From Amoebophrya sp. A120 (Eukaryota; Protista; Dinoflagellata), in contig CAJINV010000001.1 in the NCBI GenBank assembly GCA_905178155.1, forward strand, positions 9,197,865-9,261,864: a DNA stretch of 64,000 bases, read 5' to 3'. Of this stretch, positions 6,088 to 61,364 are shown in pieces. The notes under the pieces are model-generated. The model made no database searches, was not told the origin of the DNA, and worked only from the letters and a program-made list of their open reading frames with translations. The first letter of the stretch is position 1. The number at the start of each line of letters is the position of its first letter. The position numbers and the translations under genes were made by a program.

Positions 6088-7146
6088 ATGTCGCGGGAAA
6101 CAGAGATTTTGTACGACCGGATTACCCGTCTGGAGAAAATGGTGCAGGAACAGAGCGACAGAATTTATAAGCAGGACGACCGAATCAACCACCTCGAGAA
6201 GGAGCTGCTTTTTGGAAAGGGCCCTACATGTATACGGATTTTCTTAGATGGAGATGATAAAATTGCAAAAACATGATGTATTGAGACTGACCTTAGAGGA
6301 AGCGTGAATACTTCTAGAGAAACTCCAAGTACTAGTATTTTTGCATTCCATTTTTTATTACCCCCGCCACCACACCATCGACAGCCCGTAGAGCCGAGCG
6401 GAAGACCGACGAGGAGAAGCAAAAAGAGGAACAAGCCACCGAGCGGGTAATGGAAAAATTGGAAGAGCGTCGCGTCGACACGCGCTGCATCGATTTCTGG
6501 CGCTCCATATCAAATGCAAAAATGTCTGGGTCTGGAAACTTGTGATGCTGGGTGGCGTCTCATGATGAGGCTACAACTGCTGGCTCAGCATGACAAGTTT
6601 CTGAGCTCCTCGGTGTTGCCTATTCTGCATGACAAACTGCGCTTCTGCGTCACAGAAAAGCGGAGCTCTTGGGTAACGTGCATGACAGATTTAAGAGTCA
6701 TGCCAGACAAGCATGACAAACATGAATTCTTCCAGACCCAGACATTTTTACAGTTGATACTCCAACCCGGAATGTCACCTTGAGCTGCTGCGTTTCGTCG
6801 AGGACGAGGAGAAGCCGCCGGGCCGCGAGCCGGGACGCGACGAAAGTCCCTACTGGATGGCGACCTTGAAGAAGTACTTTGTTTTTTCATTTGTTGCAGA
6901 AGATGTATTGTAAGTATGACAAGCGCTGTGATGAACTCGATGGGCTAGAGAACTCGATACGGATGCGAACCACTAGGTACCTGTTAAGAAATTGATTCTC
7001 TAAACGCCTCGAATGTGAATGCAGAGTATCAAATTAAACTTTTCAGGCACCTGGACATCAAGCATGGCATTCCCCCGAAGGGAAAGGGCAAAAAGGGAAA
7101 GCGCGCTTCCTCCCGCTCCAGGTCCCGCTCTCGCCGACGCTACTAA
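6088..7146 (+). CDS. Small coiled-coil + helical-domain protein with C-terminal RS tail (candidate RNA-binding/splicing factor)
   Basis: Exons 6088-6229, 6385-6507, 6765-6873, 7047-7146 (two GT-AG introns, one introner) give an open ~157-aa protein ending KGKGKKGKRASSRSRSRSRRRY. Paralogous to 7815-8834. Confidence 0.65.
6508..6759. mobile_element. Introner/MITE family A, 252-bp subfamily, TSD CTCCA
   Basis: ~30-bp TIR TATCAAATGCAAAAATGTCTGGGTCTGGAA ... TTCCAGACCCAGACATTTTTACAGTTGATA. CTCCA at 6503-6507 and 6760-6764. Near-identical to 58153-58404. Removal restores ...DFWRS-NPECHL... Confidence 0.93.
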
Positions 7147-26061: not shown

Positions 26062-29000
26062 ATGCAAAGACAACAACTCAAGATGACTTGGAAACGGTTC
26101 CTCCCATCTGCCAGAGGGGAGCGCCAGGTAATCGCACCTGTGCGACTTCTTCTTCATCGTCCGCAACTATCCTGGCAAAACTTCCTTCCAGCTGCCAGTG
26201 CCACTTCGCGAAGGGTCCTTTGTTCTTCCTCTTCTTCAGTACCCTCAAAAATACATCAAGTCTCGCAAAGAACAAAACGGTTTTTCTCCGGCGAGTCGGC
26301 CATTGCCGGCGCTGGCATGGGGTGTGCAGTCGCGGATTTGGGGAATCAGCTCAAGTTTCACCATTTGCACTTATACGTGAACAGTTTAAAAAGCCTGGAA
26401 GAATACAAGGCGGTGGAGGACAAGCTGAACAACTTTGTTTCTTCAGTAGGGAACGTGGAAAAGTTCAAGAAACAAACAGCAGTTGAGAAAAACGAAGAGC
26501 TGGAACAACTTTTGCGCGCCATGTGGCGATATCAAATGCAAAAGTGTCTGGGACTGAAAGAATACAAGTTTGTCATGCTTGTCTGGCATGACTCGAGAAT
26601 CTGTGTTGCATAGGCGCGAAAAGGCCCTCTTGCCTGTCATGCAAAAACGCAGTTTGCCATGCGGAATACGTAGGACATGGCAGCCAAAAAATTTGTCATG
26701 CATAGCTGCGTATTGCGGTGCGTCTACCATTCACTTTTAGCATTACAAGTTTCCAGACCCAGACACTTTTACATTTCATAGGCGAGAGAAGTACGAGCCC
26801 AAGGCCCCGGACGCGACGAAGTACGTCCCACACGGGCAGGATATGCATTGCAAAAATGTCTGGATCTGGAAGGATGTAACTTGTGATGCTGTCTTTGGAT
26901 TCTAAAAAAATCTGTACTGCCTGGCCAGCAATAGGAGTCCAGTTTGGGCTACGCGGCGAGGCCATTTGTCATGCGGAACAGGCATCAGGCAGCCCTCTAA
27001 AAGTCTGTAATGCTGGGTCATGCATTACAGGAATCATGGGTCGTGCAAAACATGCATGACACACCTCGCAATCTTCCAGACCCAGACATATTTGCATTTC
27101 ATACAGGACGTGGTGAAGCAGATGATTATGGGCGCGGGCTGGCGCATTGCGGGGGTTCATGAGGGACCGGAGTCGACGAGCTATCATGTATTTCACAATT
27201 CTTCATCCTTGATTTTTGCCACTTCATTTCCATGCTCTGCTTGTTACCTTTCGAAATAACGCTTTGGCTTTCAAAACTTTGTATTCGTCAAAATTCACAG
27301 GTCGCTACCCACGAAAACCCGCGCGAGGGTGTTGCGGTGGTCGTTACCGCCGCGCACGAAAAGGCCTCCAGCGCCGACAGCAGCGGGACTGTGCTGGATC
27401 ACTTTCACCCGAAGAATCTCAACCAGTATTTCGAGGCCCACGGGTTCCGCCAGGGGTGCGCCGTTCTCGCGTTTCACTCGAACAGCGTCGACAAGCTAGC
27501 GGAGCGGTATAAGGAGACCCACCCGGCGCTCGTGCGCGCGGGCTTTCCGAAGAGTTACGGCAGGACGAAAATTTTGGAGGTGTACGCGTATTACCAGAAG
27601 GACAGCACGAATAAGCCGGATCTGGGCACCGTCGTGCGGTTCGTGGAAGAGGATCCGTATCGGGAAATTTTCCCGCTCCCCGGAATGCAGCCGGTGAAAT
27701 ACCAGCTGTCTGATCCGGAGGTCTGTGCCGCGTACCCGGACCACTGGGTCTCCAACGTCTTCGATCGGGAGCAGGTAACAAGAGAGTCCTCTGTGGATTT
27801 TGTCATGCACACCCGTACAAATTATGCGCTAGACTTCGTTATGCTGTAGTTCTAGTTTCTTTATGAAAAGAGTTGGAAAAAAATCAAATCCAATGTCGCA
27901 CTCGCACTCGTCCGTCACTTCAGGTCCTGAAAACCTTCGAGGACGTTTTCGGTTTCCAGCCAAAGGTGAACTTCAACGCGGGGGTAGTCGGTGCCGGCGA
28001 AGCGGTGATTGAGTCCACCGTGACTGGAAATGAGCCTAAGGTGGAGCTCAGCGACGAAAACCAGTGGTTCAAGAACCAGGACCAGATCTACCTGCCGATC
28101 AACAACGCGCTCTCCGAGCACGGACACGTCCATCTCTACCTCGAACAGGTCGGCCAGGGCGTGCAGCATTTCGCGTCAAGGGTGAAAAATCTCCCGGACT
28201 TTATCAGCCGCGCGAACCGGTTTCGGGAAGTATTGAGAGGAAAAATCCCCCCTCCCCAAATTGAAAAGGTATGTTTCCAAAAATTTGTGTTGCGGATTTG
28301 AGGTCACAAATCACATCTGTCTTGCAAGAAGACAAGGGCAGAAGCTTCCGCCCCATTATGGAAGCGATTTGCCATGCTGTCTGGCGTAAAGGGGGGCCGT
28401 TTGCCATGCTGAACTACTAGACCCATACGCCCCTACCTCCCCCCCTGGGGATCTGGCCGCAGTGCCTCTGTGCAATACAAAGCTGATTTGTGGTCACAAA
28501 TCAGCATCACAAATTTCCGTTTTGATATGGGGAGGGGGGATTTTTCATTTTGATAGGAAGTTACGGGAGAAGGCTTGGCGTTTCTGGATATTCCGAGAAG
28601 TTACTACGGTTTTCTGAGAGTAGAAGACTTCGAACAGTTCAAGTTTGACAGAGCGCAGGGGGAGAAAGTGCTCGAAGTCCTGCGAAAAGAGAACATCGTC
28701 GACGAGCACAACGTGGTGGCACTCGACATCGACAGGGAAGGTGTGGAAAGAGTGCTGAAGGAAGCGTCGGCATCATCAATAGGAGACTTTATTGCGGAGA
28801 ACCAGCACAGCGACATTGCGGACTTGGTTTGTCGCGGCAGATACCGAAATTTGTACGATATGATGCTGGACACGCTGAACGAAGAGGAATACTTGAACAT
28901 CGTGAAGAACAAAATTCTCGTGGACATCCAGGGCAAAGACATCTTGCTCCAGATTTTCTCCAAGCCCGTTCTCATGGCCGAGCCCGGCCAGCAAGCGCCG

Positions 29001-38544: not shown

Positions 38545-40880
38545 ATGCAACATTTTTGTACACGGTTCGCTCCGGCCGCGGTTCGGGTTGCTCCACCGAC
38601 GAGCGACCAGACTATCAAATGTAAAAATGTCTGGGTCCGGAAGAATGTGCGATTTGTCATGCAGCTTTTCCATGATCTATGAGGTCTGGAATGCAGGAGC
38701 TAGCGTGACAGATTCTGTGCGATCTCTCTCATGCCTATCCTGCATGGGAAACTCCCTCCCGACTTGGTCAAAACTGGACGATTTTTGGTAATCACGCAAC
38801 ACAGATTTTTGCATGCTTCAGATCTAGCATGACAGGTTGCATTCTTCCAGACCCAGACATTTTTGCATTTGATACAGACTGGTTGGGAGCAAAGTTCGGG
38901 ATCTTCCTCGTCTTCCTCGTCTTCTTCCCGACCTCGGGCGGAGCACTTCGTTTCTGATGCATCTTTAAAGTCTAGTACTTTTGACTGCTCGCGGACCAGG
39001 CGCTCCTTCTCCCGTCCTACCAGCTTACTCGATTTTTGTGACGAGTTTGCCCTACAACGCAGCGCAGGTTTATTTTCCGCGGCACACAATAAGAATTTCG
39101 TTCTTTGCGAGGTGAAGAACGAAACCGCGTCCGACCACGGCAGCGTTTCGTTCGACCCGAACCATGAGGATCGTAGTAAGACCAAAAGTAAAACCTCTAA
39201 CGGCGACGCCGCACTACAGCTCGACCGCGGAATTTTCATCCGCGAAAGCACGCTGCAGTTTGAAGACAAGTACCAAATGGCGAAGGAGGGGCAGATCGGT
39301 GAGGGCGGATTCGGTGCGGTTTTCAAGTGTAAGCACAAGGGCACGGGCGTCCTGCGTGCGGCGAAGCGGATCCCCAAGCACGTGCTGCAGAGCGACTGGG
39401 CGATGTTCGAGAACGAAGTGAAATCGCTGATCGCACTGGACCATCCGCACATCGTGAAACTCTTGGAGTACTTCGACGATGGAAAAGACGTCGTTTTGGT
39501 GTTCGAGCTCTGTCAGGGACCGGACCTCTTCGACCGGATAGTAGACGTGTTGAAAACCAAAAACCGGTTCAACAAGCAGGAAGCCGGGAGACTGCTTCGC
39601 CACATGCTGAAGGCGGTTTTCTGCTGCCACTCGCTCGGCATTGTGCACCGCGACATCAAGCCGGAGAACTTCATGTTCGCCAGTGTCGATCGGAACGCGA
39701 GCTTGAAGCTGATCGACCTAGGGTTGTCCGCGAGGAGTAGCGGCGAGTCCGATCTCGAGGGGCAGCGGGGCACCGTCGCGTACATGCCGCCGGAAATGAT
39801 TGCCGGGGGCAAGTACGACCGCAGAGTGGACATCTGGGGCTTGGGCATCATCCTCTACATCATGCTGGCCGGTGAGCCGCTGTTTTCCCTCGGCGCGGAG
39901 GAGGAAGAAGTCAAGCAGCAGATCCTGGATCCGCGGTATCTATCGAAGAAGCTGAAAAAGAAAAAGAAAAACATGGACCCCGACGGGTACGATTTATTGG
40001 AAAAAATGTTGCAGCGCGACCACACGAAGCGCATCGACGCGAGGGTGGCCTTGGAGCACCCGTTTATCCAGAAGAGCTACGACCCACCAGAAGGCAGGCA
40101 GAACAGCAAAGGCGGAGCAGGAGTGCCGACGAGGGTACTGGAGTTTGCTTTCTTTTCTTTTGCGCGGTTTCATTGTGTATAACCTTAGCTCCATATGCTA
40201 ATGTGAAAGTAAATTACTACAAACTTTGTCATCAGCTCCCGTCCGGCCAGCGGCGTTTGCACATGGATGAAGTGATGAAGAATATGCGGGAATTCGCACA
40301 ACTCCCACTCCTGAAACGCGCGGCCCTCATTGTGCTCGCGCATCTGGCCGGCACCGACACGGACGACCTTGCACCGCATAGGCTGACTTTCCGGGCGCTG
40401 GATAAGGACGGGTCTGGAACCTTATCGATGGAAGAATTCGTGAACGCAGTGCGCTCGGAGGGCGGCATAGACTTTGAACTGCCACACGATTTCGAGGTTG
40501 AGGTGTGGCCCCGGGTCGACTTGAACCAGAGCGAAGACATCAACTTCACCGAGTTCTTGGCGGCCACGCTCGACTGGCGTTCCTTCAACGAAGCGCATTA
40601 TTTGGCGGTGTACCAGGTAAGGGATTGGATGTGGCATAAGGAAAGTTCAGAACAAAGGAAGTGTGCGTGGTTCAATATATTTTTCTGCGGAACTCGTATC
40701 TGTCTGAAACTGAAACCCCCTCAGGTTCTCGACGCCGACGGCAGCGGTTGTGTGGATGTGCAGGACATGCGTGTGATTTTTCCCAACAACACTTTGGAGG
40801 AGCTCAACAATATGATGCGGGAGGTCACCCCAGATGGTCGGCTCACTTTTGAACAGTTTCTGGCAGCCATGCGGCGCTGA
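38545..40880 (+). CDS. Calcium-dependent protein kinase (kinase domain + EF hands)
   Basis: Exons 38545-38612, 38880-40134, 40236-40616, 40725-40880. GEGGFG, AAK, HRDIKPEN, DLG, MPPE. EF loops DKDGSGTLS, DLNQSEDIN, DADGSGCVD. ATG 38545 is in frame only after introner removal. Confidence 0.9.
38613..38874. mobile_element. Introner family A, 262-bp subfamily, TSD CAGAC
   Basis: TIRs as family A. CAGAC at 38608-38612 and 38875-38879. Very similar to 57824-58085, same orientation. Confidence 0.93.
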
Positions 40881-40881
40881 T

Positions 40882-41090
40882 TATCCAAGAAAAAAACTGT
40901 GTAAGTGTAAATTTGTGTTGCAGAACGTGCAACAGAGTTACACCTGTCATGCCAGGCTGCCATGAAGTCCTCTTTTCATGTGTGTTTTCACTTACAAGCT
41001 ACGCATGACAGGTTTTCTCTGTCATGTAGCGCAAATTTGTGATGCTGCTCCTCAAAGAAAGTTACACTTACACACTTTTTTTCCTGGATA
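40882..41090. mobile_element. MITE/introner family C, 209 bp, TSD CTGAT (includes the CDPK stop codon)
   Basis: TATCCAAGAAAAAAACTGTGTAAGTGTAA ... TTACACTTACACACTTTTTTTCCTGGATA. CTGAT at 40877-40881 and 41091-41095. Confidence 0.88.
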
Positions 41091-43245: not shown

Positions 43246-46118
43246 ATGTCTTGGTCGTCCGTTTCTGCCCGCTGCAGAAATGCTTCGGGCGTAAGAGGTG
43301 CGTCGCAAACCTACCTGCACAAAAGTCGCCTCGTTCCTGCATGCGGGAGGTCGACTTCCGGTGGCAGCCTGCCCTCGCGCCTACGTGGAACAGCACTAAG
43401 TGATAGCAAACGGCACCCAGCATCAGATCGCCAACAAGCCCGACACTACGGGTTCGGGTCTTTTCACAAAGCAGAGCTACTTCCTGGCGCTTTGCCAACG
43501 CGACAGTTTTCGCCGATAAAGCCAGCGTATGGGCTCTATCCAGAGCTCTTGTCGGGGACGACCTTCACCGCGCCGCGCGCGAAGAACCGTTACACGTGGA
43601 TGTACCGATGCAGACCCAGTGTGAAGCACGATGGCCAGTACCAAAATGGAGATCACAAGCTTGCGAAAGCAGTGGCAAATCACCGATGGACGACTCGACC
43701 TGCGATGAATCCGACATCGCCGTCGCAGTTTCGCTTTCCCAGGCTCGAGGTACAGTGAATCGATCTTCTTCTTTGCAGGATAGAGAACAAAAAGTGGCGT
43801 GCTTGACAGTTGCTTGTATGGATTTATTTGCATCAGTGTGAATCAAAAGCTAGACGCCAAATGAACTGTTACAGGAGCCCCGCGGTCTGACGTGTGACTT
43901 TTTGGACGGCATGGTAACTTTGGCTGTGAACGGTTCAGGCGAAAAGCAGCAGGGGGCCGCGGCTTCGGTGTATTCTTGTACGCAATCCATGACGCGGGTT
44001 TTTCGGAATCACGATGCAGAGATGATGATAATTCCGCAAAGCGGAAATCTCTGTGTGCGCACGGAGCTTGGAGTGCTGAGACTAGAGCCATCGGTATAAA
44101 GACATAGGGAGTTGATTTTCTTTCCACTCGGAGTGGGCCTGAAACGCGTTAGAATGGCGGGAATGATTGTCGTCACTTTTCCCATCGGCACGCAATCCAA
44201 TAGATGACTCATTCATTTAAATTCAGGAATTCGCTTTGATTCCTCGCGGGATGGTGTTTCGCGTGGAGATCGATGGCGACGCCGCTGAGGGATACGTTTT
44301 GGAAAACTTCGGCGCTCTGTTCCAATTGCCCGAACTGGGCCCAATCGGGATCAGCAGTGGTCTTGCGCACCCGAGGCACTTTGTCCCGGCCGAGCTCGAG
44401 GGCAACAAGGAACTCGCTCTCGACAACGCTAGCAAAAGGCTACCGCAGCCAACCGAGATCATTTCCAAGTTTCAGGACAGTTTTTTCGAAGCAAAAACGG
44501 AGTTCAACGCGTTTGACGTGGTCGCGTACTACGGGAACTACATTCCTGTCAAGTACGATCTGCGGGATTTCATGGCGATAAATTAGACCAGAAAATCGGA
44601 CGAAGTACATACTTTTTCGCGCACCCGCTGGCATGGCGGGCCACTTTCGTTTCGCTTTGAGGGCGGCGGGATGCCCTTGCAACACACCCGGCCCGAGGAA
44701 CTCGCTGCGCCATGCAGCGGCCCGGGCGTTGTGGCTTGTCAAAGAGAGCCGGGGCGGCCTCCCGGCCTCGAAGCCCGCCCAGAGCGAGAAGCGCCGCCCC
44801 GCCAAGCGGCTTCCCCCCGGGCCTTTCCCTGTCGGGGCGATGCGCCACCGCCATGTTTTTTGCCGGAAGCACATGGGCCTGCTTGCCGTAAAGGAGGGGC
44901 CGGCCGCCGAAGCAGTAGAGCGCGCGCCCCTTGGGTTGGGCCTGCTTCGGCCCAAGCCACCGCCCCCCAAGTTGGGGGTAATGATGGGGGGGCCCGGAAG
45001 GCGCGCGCGCCCCCCCCCTCTGGGGGGGGGGTAAACAGAGGGCAGAATTGGGGCAATTCTGCCCCCTTTTTTAGGGGGGGGCAAAAAATGGCCTTCCCCC
45101 GATGCTACAGGGGGGGAGCAAAATGGCCCAGAACCGGGCACATTTTACCCCCCCCCAAAAGAAGGGCGAATTGGGCCAATTCGGCCCCCCCTTTTCCCCC
45201 CCGGAAGAAGGGGAGGGCGCGCACGCCTTTCAAGGGGCGTGCAGTTCACCCGCCGGCCGGGGCCCCGGATGAAGAAGGGCGCGCCGCCAAAGCAAAAGCT
45301 TTTCCGGCCCCGGACGGGCTTCGAGTTGGGGCCCCGGGATGCACGCCGCGTCGGCTGTGCATCCTCGACTTGAGCCTCGCGCGGGGGCGGGTGGCGAAGT
45401 GCTGGCTGCGTGCCGTCGCCTTCCTATCTATGTCCGGCCGACCCTCCCCGGCCCCGGCCGCCCCGCCGCAATGCCGGAGGCTAATTTTTCCGGGGTAAAG
45501 CAGCCCGGAACGCGGTCGCGCCTTCGCGCCCCTCAACTTCTTTCCGCCCGCGACCCCCATTGCACGGGGATGCGCAAAAAAACATGTACTTCGTCCGATT
45601 TTCTGGTCTAAATAAACACGGTCACCTACGACCACCCGGACCCGAGCATCGGCAGTGTTTTGTCAAGTTACGCGGACCAGAGTTCCGGCCTTGCGAACAT
45701 CGACTTTGTTTGCTTTCCGCCACGGTACGTAGTCGCGGAAAACACCTTCCGGCCGCCGTGGTTTCACCGGAACTTCATGAGCGAGTTCATGGGCCTGATT
45801 ATCGGGAGTTACGACGCGAAGAAAGGATTCTCGCCGGGGGCTAGTTCCATTCACAACGCGTTTGTCCCGCACGGACCGGACAGGGCCGCGGTGGAGAACG
45901 CGAGCGGAAAAGACCCATTGACCCCCGAAAGATACGAGAACGCGTTGGCGTTTATGTGGGAGAGCAATCGGGTGTGGAAACCCACCGAGTTTGCACTGAA
46001 AATTGTCGACAAGGAATACCGGAAGGAGTGCGGGTGGAGCGAGATACCCGACCGTTTCGACCCGAACAACGCACCGCCAGACCCCCAACCACGACCGTTT
46101 CAGGGTGGGAGCGGCTGA
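43246..46118 (+). CDS. HGD: Homogentisate 1,2-dioxygenase
   Basis: Exons 43246-43749, 43875-44093, 44227-44582, 45617-46118. [83 protein letters not shown]. Confidence 0.95.
44583..45611. mobile_element. Large introner family D, 1029 bp, TSD ATAAA
   Basis: Perfect 28-bp TIR TTAGACCAGAAAATCGGACGAAGTACAT. ATAAA at 44578-44582 and 45612-45616. Removal gives the conserved [16 protein letters not shown]. Confidence 0.93.
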
Positions 46119-57235: not shown

Positions 57236-60200
57236 ATGCCGGCTGCGCAGCAATTTTCGCTGACCAGCGAGGCTGACCTGGCCAAGGCGGATGAGCACCT
57301 GCGCAAAGTCTCGTACGTCGAGGGCGGTGCCAGCTGGACCAAGACGGATTTGAAGCACTTCGAAACCGCGAAAAAAATCATGACAGCGGAGAAGGTCAAA
57401 GAGCAATATCCCTCCGTGTCCCGATGGTTCCGACACATGCAGTACCAGGTAGAGGAGACCGAGTCTGTTTCTGTTGGCTCTCTGTCCGGAACCTCTTCCC
57501 TCTTCGCCGCGCAAAAGTTGTCGGAAAACCCGAAGGGCAGCTGCAGTCCACCTGAGCCGAGCACCAGCTCAACGTCGGCAAAGCAGGGAGGTGGTGCGCA
57601 GATAAATGGGAGGAAAAATAATAAAGACCAACAGTCGCAGAAAGCCGCGCCATCTTCCGCAGGGCCGGCCGCCGCCGCAAAGCCCGCTTACGTCAAAGGG
57701 TCGAACGTGAAGGAGGTTGACTGCAAGGTCGTGCCCATGGCGGACCGGCAGAAGCGACTCCCGCAAAACCCGAGCAAGGGCCTGGCCGCGGCGAACCTGC
57801 CCACCAGCAAGGGGAAGGAAACGTATCAAATGTAAAAATGTCTGGGTCTGGAAGAATGCGCGACTTGTCATGCACCTTTTCCATGACACGCGAGGTCTGG
57901 AATGCAGGACCTAGCATGACAGATTCTGTGCGATCTTTCTCATGCCTATCCTGCATGAGAAACTGCCTCCCGACTTGGTCAAAACTGGACGACTTTTGGT
58001 AATCATGCAACACAGATTTTTGCATGCTTCAGATTTAGCATGACAAGTTGCATTCTTCCAGACCCAGACATTTTTACATTTGATAAAACGCGGTATTTGA
58101 CCACGGCTATCCACTACACCAACGGCTGGCCGCACGTCGGGCACGCCTACGATATCAAAAGTAAAAATGTCTGGGTCTGGAAACTTGTGATGCTGGGTGG
58201 CGTCTCGTGATGAGGCTACAAATGCTGGCTCAGCATGACAAGTTTCTGAGCTCCTAGGTGTTGCCTATTCTGCATGACAAACTGCGCTTCTGCATCACAG
58301 AGAAACGGAGCTCTTGGATAACGTGCATGACAGATTTAAGAGTCATGCCAGACAAGCATGACAAACGTGAATTCTTCCAGACCCAGACATTTTTACATTT
58401 GATATACGAGACCATCCAGGCGGATTGTCTCGCGCGGTACTTTCGCCTGAACAACTACGACACGTTTTTCCAGACCGGGACCGACGAGCACGGACAAAAG
58501 ATTGCCGAGGCCGCCACGGCGCAGGGAATGGCCAAGCCAAAAGACTTGTGCGACTACTACTGCCAGGGCTTCGAGGGGCTGTTTGGCCGCACGGAGGTGT
58601 CCGAGGATCAGTTCATCCGCACGTCGTCCCCCGAGCACTACAAAATCGTACAGGACTTGTGGAAGAAGGTCAGCGACAAGGGAGACATTTACTTGGCGGA
58701 GTACGAAGGCTGGTACATGGTGCGCGAGGAAAAATTCGTCACGGATCAAGAGGCGGAAGAGTGGAAATTTTTGGATCCGGTCAATGGCAAGCCGCTGCAA
58801 CGTATTTTTTACAAAATGCTTCGCTTTAGTTCCTTTTTTTTTCTCTAGTGTAGTAGCTAGGATTTCGCACTGGAACTCGATCATCGGTCGTTGCACGAGG
58901 CCTATGATAGATATGTATACCTATGTTTCGAAGTGCATGTTGCGACCACAACATGAATCCACAGGTATGAAGGAACCCTCGTACTTTTTCCGTATGTCCA
59001 AGTACAAGGATTTCATTCGGGAGAAGCTTTCCGAGCCCGGCTGGTGCAAGCCGGACAACTACCGGAAGGAAATGCTTGCCCGGCTAGACGACATGGAGGC
59101 CAAGGGGGGTTTGCGCGATCTGTCCATCTCCCGCGCGAACTTCGACTGGGGTATTCCGGTGCCGGAGAAGGTCGGGCCGGACGGCAAGAAGCACGTGATG
59201 TACGTGTGGTTTGATGCCTTGACGAACTACTACTCCGGCGTCAGTTTCAATCCCGCAAACAGTAAGTACTGGCCGGCAAACATGCACGTGATTGGGAAGG
59301 ACATCATCTGGTTTCACACCGCAATCTGGGGCTCCATGCTGAAATCCGCGGAGCTCCCATTGCCAAAGCAGGTAGTGGTCCACGGATTCGTAAACGACGC
59401 CGAGGGAAAAAAGATGAGCAAGTCTGAAGGTAATTTGGGGGTTTCTCTTTCCACTCCTCTTTTTCAACAATTGGTCTGAATGTTTTCGTGTCTCGTCTGG
59501 TGCTACTGGTATTGGTCATGACATTGACAACTGCACCCATAGCTGCACAAAAAAAGTTTACGCCACACGATGCCTACAGGTAACGTTGTGAATCCGCACG
59601 ATATTTGCGACTGGTGCAGTCCGGACACCCTCAGATGGTACCTGATTCGGGAGGCCCACTGGGGAAACGACCTGCCGTTTTCGGTCAAGAGCCTGAAGCT
59701 CATGCACAACGCAGGTAAGAAAGAGAAAGTAGGAAGGTTGATTGGGGTTATCTGCAACCGGATGTGATCATCATTTCTTTCTTCTTTGGAAGTAGCCCTT
59801 TCCTTCACATTTTGACCCTGCGTAGTAGTGCACGAAAATTGTTGATGAAAACTAACACCTCCACATACGGTACCAGATCTTTGCGACAACTTGGGCAACC
59901 TGGTAAACCGCGCCGTGTCCCTGTGCAAGGGCGCCGTCCCGGCCGTGTCCGATGCGATCATCAAAGAATGTGGGTTGCCATTTGACGTTGCGGAGTTGCG
60001 AAAGAAGTTCTGCGAGGCCTTCGAGGACTGCCGCACCGGTGAGACCGCCGAAATGGCCCGCATCGCGGCGGCGGAAACGAACAAGTGGTTGGCGGATCTG
60101 GAACCCTGGAAGATGAACAAACAGGACCCGGTGAAAGCTGCCGGCGTAGTACGCATCTGCCTCGAGGCCGTCTATGTCCTGGCGCACTTCTTCGCCCCAT

Positions 60201-61364
60201 TCATCCCGCGCGCGGCCGAAGCGATCGTGATCGAAAAGTTGCAACAAAAGAACGCGGTGGCGTACGGCGATCTCAAGCCGTTAGGGCAAAATCTGAAGGA
60301 GGGAGCGCCGGTGGGAAGTACGAGCATTTTGTTCCAATCGTTCTCCGCAGAACAGATCGAAATCATGACCACGACCATGAGTCTGGAACAGCCGGCACCG
60401 GTCGCAAAGGCCGCAGCAGCACCGGCGGTGGCAAAGGCACAGCCGAAGCAGGGTGGAAAAGGAGGTATAAAACATAAATTTTCTGGGTTTTTCTCTTTTG
60501 AAGATGGTATGACGAGTTTGTGATAATTGCGCCTGCTGCAGCTTATTGATACAGAGTGGCTGGTTTACGAGACCCGTGCGTACTTTTTTGTTTCGCAATG
60601 CGGGTCGTTATTAATGGAATTTCGAAATTTCAGGTGACAACGCTGCGAAGGAAAAGAAGCCGAAGGAGAAGAAAGCTGCTGGTCCCGCCGCTCCGGCTTT
60701 GGACATGGACCAACCTTTGTACAGCCGCTTGGACCTGCGGGTGGGAAAGATTGTCGAAGTTGAGAATCATCCGGACGCAGAGCGCCTATACGTCGAAAAA
60801 ATCGATGTTGGCGAGGCGGAGCCCAGGACGATTATTTCTGGTACGCGAGTTTTGTGGTTTGGGACAGATTCTCATTCCAAGTCTTGCTATGGGGTTTCGT
60901 TCACACCGACACTGCATAAAGATTAGACGCGGATGATGAAGTACTTCTTCGTCCTAAAAAATCGTTTATTCTCTGTACTACACAACAATCCAGGTTTGCG
61001 CGAGCACTACACTTTGGAAGAGATGAAAGGGCGACAGATCGTGACCATTTGCAACCTGAAACCGGCGAAGATGCGGGGTATCACCTCCCACGGTATGGTT
61101 CTCTGCGCGAAAACCGAAGACGGCAAGGTGCAGTTTGCCGCGTTGCCGAAGGACTGCAAACCGGGCGACCACATCCTCGTCGAGGGCGATTCCGCTGAGC
61201 GGAAGCCGTGGGACGGCAAGCAGGTCGACAAGCACCAGGTCTGGGCCGACGCTTCCAAGCTGATGCGCACGGACGGGGCTGGCGTCCCGTGCTTCGACGG
61301 CAACCCGCTCGTCGTGAACGGTCAGAGGCTCTCCTCGGACTTTAAGAATGCCATTTTGTCCTAG
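57236..61364 (+). CDS. MARS: Methionyl-tRNA synthetase with N-terminal GST-like/EF1B-like domain and C-terminal EMAPII-like tRNA-binding domain
   Basis: Exons 57236-57823, 58091-58152, 58410-58801, 58965-59429, 59580-59714, 59877-60464, 60634-60840, 60994-61364. [69 protein letters not shown]. Confidence 0.93.
57824..58085. mobile_element. Introner family A, 262 bp, TSD AAACG
   Basis: Perfect TIR of at least 30 bp, TATCAAATGTAAAAATGTCTGGGTCTGGAA. AAACG at 57819-57823 and 58086-58090. Removal gives [12 protein letters not shown]. Confidence 0.95.
58153..58404. mobile_element. Introner family A, 252 bp, TSD TACGA
   Basis: TIRs as family A. TACGA at 58148-58152 and 58405-58409. Removal gives HVGHAYE-TIQAD. 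Confidence 0.95.

Follow-up and report, generated by a model that had tools for sequence, protein, structure and literature searches.

How does a cell match the correct ends of two neighbouring introns whose ends are almost the same? The question is raised by the methionyl-tRNA synthetase (MetRS) gene of Amoebophrya sp. A120, a parasitic dinoflagellate, in which a 62-nt catalytic exon is flanked on each side by an introner element. An earlier note on this DNA observed that the outermost terminal inverted repeats (TIRs) of the two elements might pair and so loop out the exon. The puzzle is sound, but it is general rather than specific to MetRS.

The MetRS gene and its product

The gene occupies 57236–61364 on the + strand of the window, i.e. 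the whole 64,000-nt stretch of DNA that was analysed. It has eight exons coding for 935 amino acids, as judged from the spliced model, Pfam and the supplement of PMC7789003 (entry MARS). The eight-exon model built from the joints of sequencing run X1 is letter-identical to the public CAD7926137.1 / GSA120T00005652001. The Pfam domain order comprises the N-terminus, the class I (M) core, the anticodon domain and the C-terminal tRNA-binding domain; at the N-terminus there is a weak likeness to Arc1p-N that lies below the Pfam cut-off. Membership of the class I MetRS enzymes is indicated by PF09334 (tRNA-synt_1g, E 2e-90), PF19303 and PF01588, and both the HVGH (HIGH-type) and KMSKS motifs are present in the MetRS alignment. 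A translated single exon of the window is 100% identical to the A120 protein and 73% to that of A25.

Five introns of the gene are canonical GT-AG introns on the + strand, each seen as a joint in X1. They lie at 58802–58964, 59430–59579 (cut +2), 59715–59876 (cut +3), 60465–60633 (cut +2) and 60841–60993 (cut +1).

The supplement of PMC7789003 assigns the gene as the cytoplasmic MetRS, and it is the sole MetRS entry there for A120; by contrast, A120 is entered twice in that table for each of EARS, SARS and TARS. A protein search gave one A120 and one A25 protein among the best 120 of 7,548 matches. The earlier note had called for a check for a second cytosolic MetRS, and the table of PMC7789003 holds none beyond the single MARS entry.

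Anatomy of the two elements and the exon between them

Element 1 is 262 bp long (57824–58085, no strand assigned) and was found by a TIR scan. It has perfect 36-nt TIRs starting TAT-N7-AAA, and comparison of repeats shows that it is bordered by the target-site duplication AAACG at 57819–57823 and 58086–58090 (+ strand). Element 2, found in the same way, is 252 bp long (58153–58404, no strand assigned), with TIRs of 30–31 nt containing one mismatch, and is bordered by the duplication TACGA at 58148–58152 and 58405–58409 (+ strand). Between them, at 58091–58152 on the + strand, lies the exon defined by the X1 joints and translation, whose bounds can equally be written as 58086–58147. It encodes the 20 residues R197–Y216, including HVGH, plus two bases of E217, and in a protein alignment the segment is collinear with the MetRS of A25, of other dinoflagellates and of apicomplexans. 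The coordinates, the sizes of the elements, the duplications and the length of the exon all agree with those given in the earlier note. Its term micro-exon does not apply, since 62 nt exceeds the usual limit of 51 nt or less (PMC4317164).

When the four arms are compared over 30 nt, they show 0, 0, 1 and 0 mismatches. The arms of element 1 can pair with each other over 36 nt, and those of element 2 over 31 nt at 97%. The outer arms (left of element 1 and right of element 2) can pair over 39 nt at 95%, and the inner arms that flank the exon over 30 nt. The near-identity is limited to the TIRs. Thus the description of the TIRs as essentially identical is correct, while the likeness does not extend beyond them, the elements being only 71% alike overall. 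The closest sisters within the window lie elsewhere, element 1 being 93% identical to a copy at 38613 and element 2 96% identical to one at 6508, so the two are independent insertions from two subfamilies. Tandem duplication of one element was considered and rejected because the interiors are 63% alike. The intact duplications and sister copies at 93–96% are the grounds on which both elements may be called young.

Searching for TIRs accompanied by 5-bp duplications yielded nine calls in the window, compared with 0, 0, 1, 0 and 2 in five shuffled sequences, so these structures are not due to chance. GT-AG or GC-AG borders are absent from elements 1 and 2 in all six registers of each. The register that begins one base before the TIR (57823–58089 and 58152–58408) reads GT..AC and AT..CG. 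In Table S4 of PMC7789003 the nine motifs that predominate in A120 all have T as the second base; these either fit the register one base before the TIR or reflect a bias of the aligner. Over 57700–58550 a comparison with Rfam for self-splicing or other curated structured RNA gave no match to E 0.1, and there were no matches to the TIR motif in viral contigs.

The window also contains elements of other kinds. One, at 44583–45611, is 1,029 bp long; its 41-nt TIRs begin with TTAG and its 5-bp duplication is ATAAA. TTA is the start of the A25-type inverted repeats (PMC7789003). Two members of other TAT...ATA families, also bordered by 5-bp duplications, lie at 28231–28555 and 40882–41090, the first of which has many relatives in the metagenome loci described below.

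The exon is retained in the assembled transcript

A single contig of 3,199 nt in run X1 (depth 40.1) spans the MetRS gene. It lacks 267 and 257 nt, each corresponding to one element plus one copy of its duplication, and it also lacks the five GT-AG introns. The 62-nt exon is retained, record positions 845 and 908 being separated by exactly 62 letters. There are no differing letters between contig and window in the seven pieces listed. Since five ordinary introns are missing, the contig derives from a transcript. The RNA nature of runs X1–X4 was guessed from the index, and the transcript support comprises one assembled contig from one run. Both junctions predicted in the earlier note, with exact excision and the exon kept, are present in this contig. 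Inclusion of the exon is thus the main form in the assembled transcript; the contig is silent on the rate of skipping. No skip joint was present among the 11 joints listed at a 1% share, and contigs drop rare forms.

Other runs were not counted as support. In X2–X4, from the same sample as X1, the share was 0.66, where 0.64 was expected for the spliced form; in X5 and X6, possibly the source of the window, it was 0.93. The raw-read runs X8–X10 gave 176, 2 and 1 reads, all of them partial matches in bins over the elements; none fell on the MetRS exons, and they have no bearing on skipping. The 176 reads of X8 match 57999–58085 (the right part of element 1) at 90–95% with foreign flank on each side. 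Their source is a family copy at another locus, which either persists in an abundant RNA or exists as DNA. The joints 59217–59882 and 59913–60077 (side 32, with long loose ends) were discounted as belonging to other sequences or copies, and so were two joints of low depth within the elements.

Removal of both elements is required if the enzyme is to be made, as the earlier note had argued. Retention of element 1 introduces a stop three codons in, and retention of element 2 one about twenty codons in, so that translation would end before or just after the HIGH motif, and there is one MetRS in the table. The cell must therefore remove the elements somehow. Skipping of the exon with the normal geometry would lose 62 nt and shift the frame. 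Removal from TIR to TIR across both elements (57824–58404), with both duplications kept, would be in frame and lack 19 residues including the HIGH motif.

Might the junctions have an origin other than RNA splicing, i.e. jumping of reverse transcriptase at direct repeats, an element-free allele or excision at the level of DNA? A hairpin with a direct repeat is a known substrate for template switching (PMC4176328). Yet the contig that matches the window letter for letter in the listed pieces has lost five GT-AG introns as well, and RNA supports tens of thousands of members of the non-canonical class (PMC7789003). Moreover, template switching could not be the whole story, as the only listed MetRS gene would otherwise be dead. 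We regard an origin outside splicing as very improbable.

The elements belong to a known class

Farhat et al. 2021 (PMC7789003) described the introner elements (IEs) of A120 as non-canonical introns with inverted repeats and direct repeats of 3–5 nt, and reported 29,850 repeated copies. The inverted repeats of A120 consist of TAT, seven freer bases and then AAA, and the IEs form hairpins (PMC7789003). Elements 1 and 2 exhibit every IE feature that could be tested, so the class to which they belong is already known. The transcript-supported introns (the 267- and 257-nt joints) are without GT-AG borders; inverted repeats of 36 and 31 nt with TAT-N7-AAA join the ends; there are 5-nt direct repeats (AAACG and TACGA) at the borders; and the family is repeated. 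We call it family A. The elements share with the A120 IEs a length of ~240 nt and the lack of an internal transposase, together with RNA-supported removal. The reported motifs are 8–20 nt in length, whereas the TIR pairing in the MetRS elements is longer, at 30–36 nt. The elements are the IEs of Farhat et al. 2021, and both are already spliced out in the public gene model. According to Gozashti et al. 2025 (PMC12130899), a gene of A120 may contain tens of introners. IEs are reported to be rarer in translation genes (PMC7789003), so the presence of two in MetRS runs against the trend.

Seven family-A copies are found in the window, all with perfect duplications. When metagenome contigs were scanned for the TIR core, at least 151 loci (L001–L151) were obtained, and those listed were all from one other assembly (JACKZZ01 contigs). 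These contain 150 distinct copies, 126 of them with perfect 5-bp duplications, and the best likenesses of the two elements to them are 95.8% and 96.4%.

Two other groups of introns invite comparison. The introners of Micromonas pusilla and Aureococcus anophagefferens are likewise non-autonomous TIR elements with target duplications that form exact introns; they are derived from MITEs, with a bias of insertion between nucleosomes (PMC11282704, PMC9860276). In those introners one splice site of canonical type is supplied by the element and its partner is recruited from the duplication, whereas the MetRS elements have neither GT-AG nor GC-AG borders and so differ from spliceosomal introners of that type. 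The nonconventional introns of euglenids (PMC6221363, PMC12501133) share variable non-canonical borders and terminal pairing that joins the ends. They belong to a different lineage, with a short CAG/CTG code at fixed spacers in place of a 30-nt shared TIR, and they do not form a family of repeated 250-bp elements bordered by 5-bp duplications.

The crossed fold is predicted to be the more stable

The minimum-energy fold of the whole precursor is the crossed one, in which the outer arms are paired together and the inner arms close on the exon. The pairing of outer TIRs that the earlier note had raised is therefore a genuine competitor in the prediction. In constrained folds the crossed form was ahead by 4.9–7.5 kcal/mol of ensemble energy at 37–15 °C. 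The difference between crossed and local folds (4.9–8.2 kcal/mol out of about 270–360) is within the error of the model.

A different result is obtained with the growing transcript. In equilibrium folds the marker pair of element 1 had a probability of 1.00 at each of ten lengths from 58085 to 58380, falling to 0.69 at 58395 and to 0.00–0.04 from 58404 onward. The hairpin of element 1 is thus predicted to give way only once the last arm is complete. Conversion to the crossed fold was modelled by a hand-built path of four-way branch migration that omits stacking at the junction. This lies 15–20 kcal/mol above the local fold and peaks near 27 kcal/mol (20 °C). It was used in place of an automatic direct path, whose barrier of 92 kcal/mol is a loose upper bound.

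Eleven close pairs of family-A elements were compared, two in the window and nine elsewhere; a further pair, which had a nested insert, was left out. The crossed fold was favoured in seven of them when folded as the + strand and in eight as the − strand. Thus stability at equilibrium does not explain which pairs persist. A depletion of inverted near-identical neighbours was not seen (0 of the 11 close pairs, compared with 10% of random pairs, P 0.30). The folding of random pairs (325/408 crossed-favoured) was not used as a control, being inflated by inverted sister copies.

On balance we think it likely, on the basis of this modelling, that the right ends are matched by the order of transcription and not by final stability. 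The arms of element 1 would pair as soon as the right arm had been transcribed. The left arm of element 2 would then meet an element 1 arm that was already occupied, and would pair with its own right arm ~220 nt later. A switch to the crossed fold would require slow four-way branch migration, and each hairpin could thus be offered singly to the machinery that excises non-GT-AG introns before isomerization. We infer that the hairpins guide excision and that the pairing is co-transcriptional. In Euglena the hairpin-type introns are removed after the spliceosomal ones (PMC6221363), and if removal were similarly late here there would be time to isomerize.

The earlier note had offered local pairing or matching of duplications as the means of choice. 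The first has acquired a kinetic basis in the model; the second now seems the less likely. Were partner ends chosen by matching 5-nt duplications, the crossed fold would be harmless because AAACG differs from TACGA, and a skip would join unlike repeats. The perfect duplications of all seven family copies in the window and of 126/150 elsewhere are in keeping with this. Against it, among 130 copies with intact TAT ends 15 carry 1–3 mismatches in the duplication (20/650 bases, 3%). This value is close to the 0–8% mismatch between left and right arms at most TIR positions, and the duplications do not look specially protected; we consider this means of choice decidedly improbable.

A point that counts against first-come pairing is that the arms are unequal in most family copies, with a mean of 3.3 mismatches in 30 that are concentrated at positions 4, 5, 7, 10 and 15. 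Recognition of the terminal motif by protein may therefore outweigh pairing. At these five positions the arms differ in 36–64% of 130 copies, compared with 0–15% elsewhere, which suggests that there are two versions of the TIR. Proteins or a modified spliceosome might read the motif and define an intron of ~250–270 nt from the nearest 5′ end, in which case the hairpin would be a relic of transposition. The narrow range of element length (136/150 copies at 251–270 bp) fits this, as do the unequal arms, and A120 has a near-complete spliceosome while most of the non-canonical introns of its genome are without described inverted repeats or family membership (PMC7789003). However, GT-AG or GC-AG occurs in any of 12 registers on either strand in only 18/122 copies, and the composition of the duplications is near flat. 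In addition, where the + strand has an open frame, copies are found both in the same orientation as element 1 and in the opposite one, which would suit a symmetric structure (the gene strands being predicted). Definition by protein thus seems unlikely, and matching of ends by order of transcription remains our preferred reading.

Closely spaced elements are frequent

A second pair of family-A elements is present in the window, at 26530–26780 and 26842–27103. The 61-nt spacer (26781–26841) would become 56 nt after predicted splicing, with an open frame across both joins, and here the crossed fold is favoured by 13–15 kcal/mol. The occurrence of two close pairs among seven copies has P 0.002–0.01 under uniform placement.

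Spacing was counted in the 80 loci having 2-kb flanks (L001–L080), merged into 68 stretches, using an element caller that made 139 calls on real DNA and none on shuffled. Between family-A neighbours 11/49 gaps lie at 40–110 nt compared with 2.8 expected, this bin having been chosen post hoc. For all TAT...ATA elements the number is 41/116 gaps up to 2 kb, where 9.0 were expected. The disjoint set, i.e. pairs not both of family A, has 30/84 gaps in this range (share at risk 7.7%, P 3.5e-13). The gap rate is low at 111–250 nt. The 46 short spacers are all distinct, with 58% GC. An apparent shortage of gaps below 40 nt disappeared once every family was included (5 seen compared with 5.9 expected). 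In locus L001 three family-A elements lie in a row (1160–2055) with spacers of 59 and 47 nt, and two of these have mismatched duplications.

The 67 nt between the MetRS elements falls in the middle of the peak. With the second pair in the window and 41/116 neighbour gaps in the same range, the MetRS arrangement is not special. Nor is there support for the need of a special device, the class being published, the exons joined in the public model and short exons between elements frequent. The exons between elements here peak at 35–105 nt after predicted splicing, whereas those between Micromonas and Aureococcus introners are, in the work of Huff and colleagues in 2016, reportedly nucleosome-sized. 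We infer that the close spacing arises from a preference for insertion beside an existing element.

After removal of one duplication the length is divisible by three in 25/45 short spacers (P 0.002 against one third; P 0.006 against 0.36, from noisy phase estimates on 70/121 copies; P 0.025 against 0.40). Seen post hoc in the DNA of the JACKZZ01 spacers, the excess is suggestive. Neither of the window cases (MetRS exon 62 nt, second pair a predicted 56 nt) is a multiple of three.

The in-frame excess hints that skipping does happen. The choice of ends might then be leaky, such that a sizeable share of the precursor crosses and skips or circularizes the exon, giving frameshifted products that are degraded and so invisible in contigs. 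This would be in keeping with the crossed fold being that of minimum energy and with the change of frame on loss of 62 nt, as well as with the post hoc excess of in-frame spacers. Against this there is no skip joint among the 11 listed, the modelled barrier to isomerization is high, and heavy loss of a catalytic exon in the only listed MetRS would be costly. A choice as leaky as this is improbable.

Implications

The elements, the gene model and the class are already public; novelty may lie in the peak of spacing and in employing exons of this kind to test excision. Neighbouring IEs, their spacing, exon skipping, exon length and nucleosomes are not discussed in the text of PMC7789003. In the openly accessible literature we found no report on partner choice or spacing of Amoebophrya introners; the subscription papers Roy et al. 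2023 and Huff et al. 2016 may bear on it.

We suggest tentatively that Amoebophrya introners could insert preferentially at a distance of 35–105 coding bases from an element already present, in a lineage that reportedly has few nucleosomes, and so yield many exons that can be cross-paired. First-come closure would then beat the equilibrium fold, and the cost of skipping might be seen in the excess of in-frame spacers. This is possible rather than probable.

How A120 removes tens of thousands of non-GT-AG introns with no U1 snRNA detected in the genome study is an open question in that study (PMC7789003). Exons between elements with the same TIR discriminate between the possible rules. Pairing at equilibrium predicts skipping, while first-come pairing, matching of duplications and definition by protein each predict inclusion, for different reasons. 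The MetRS exon is a stringent natural test case, as it is catalytic and lies in the only listed MetRS. If our reading is true it would be a built-in essential reporter for the mechanism of excision, and the peak at 40–110 nt, if it is genome-wide, would inform the choice of target by the elements.
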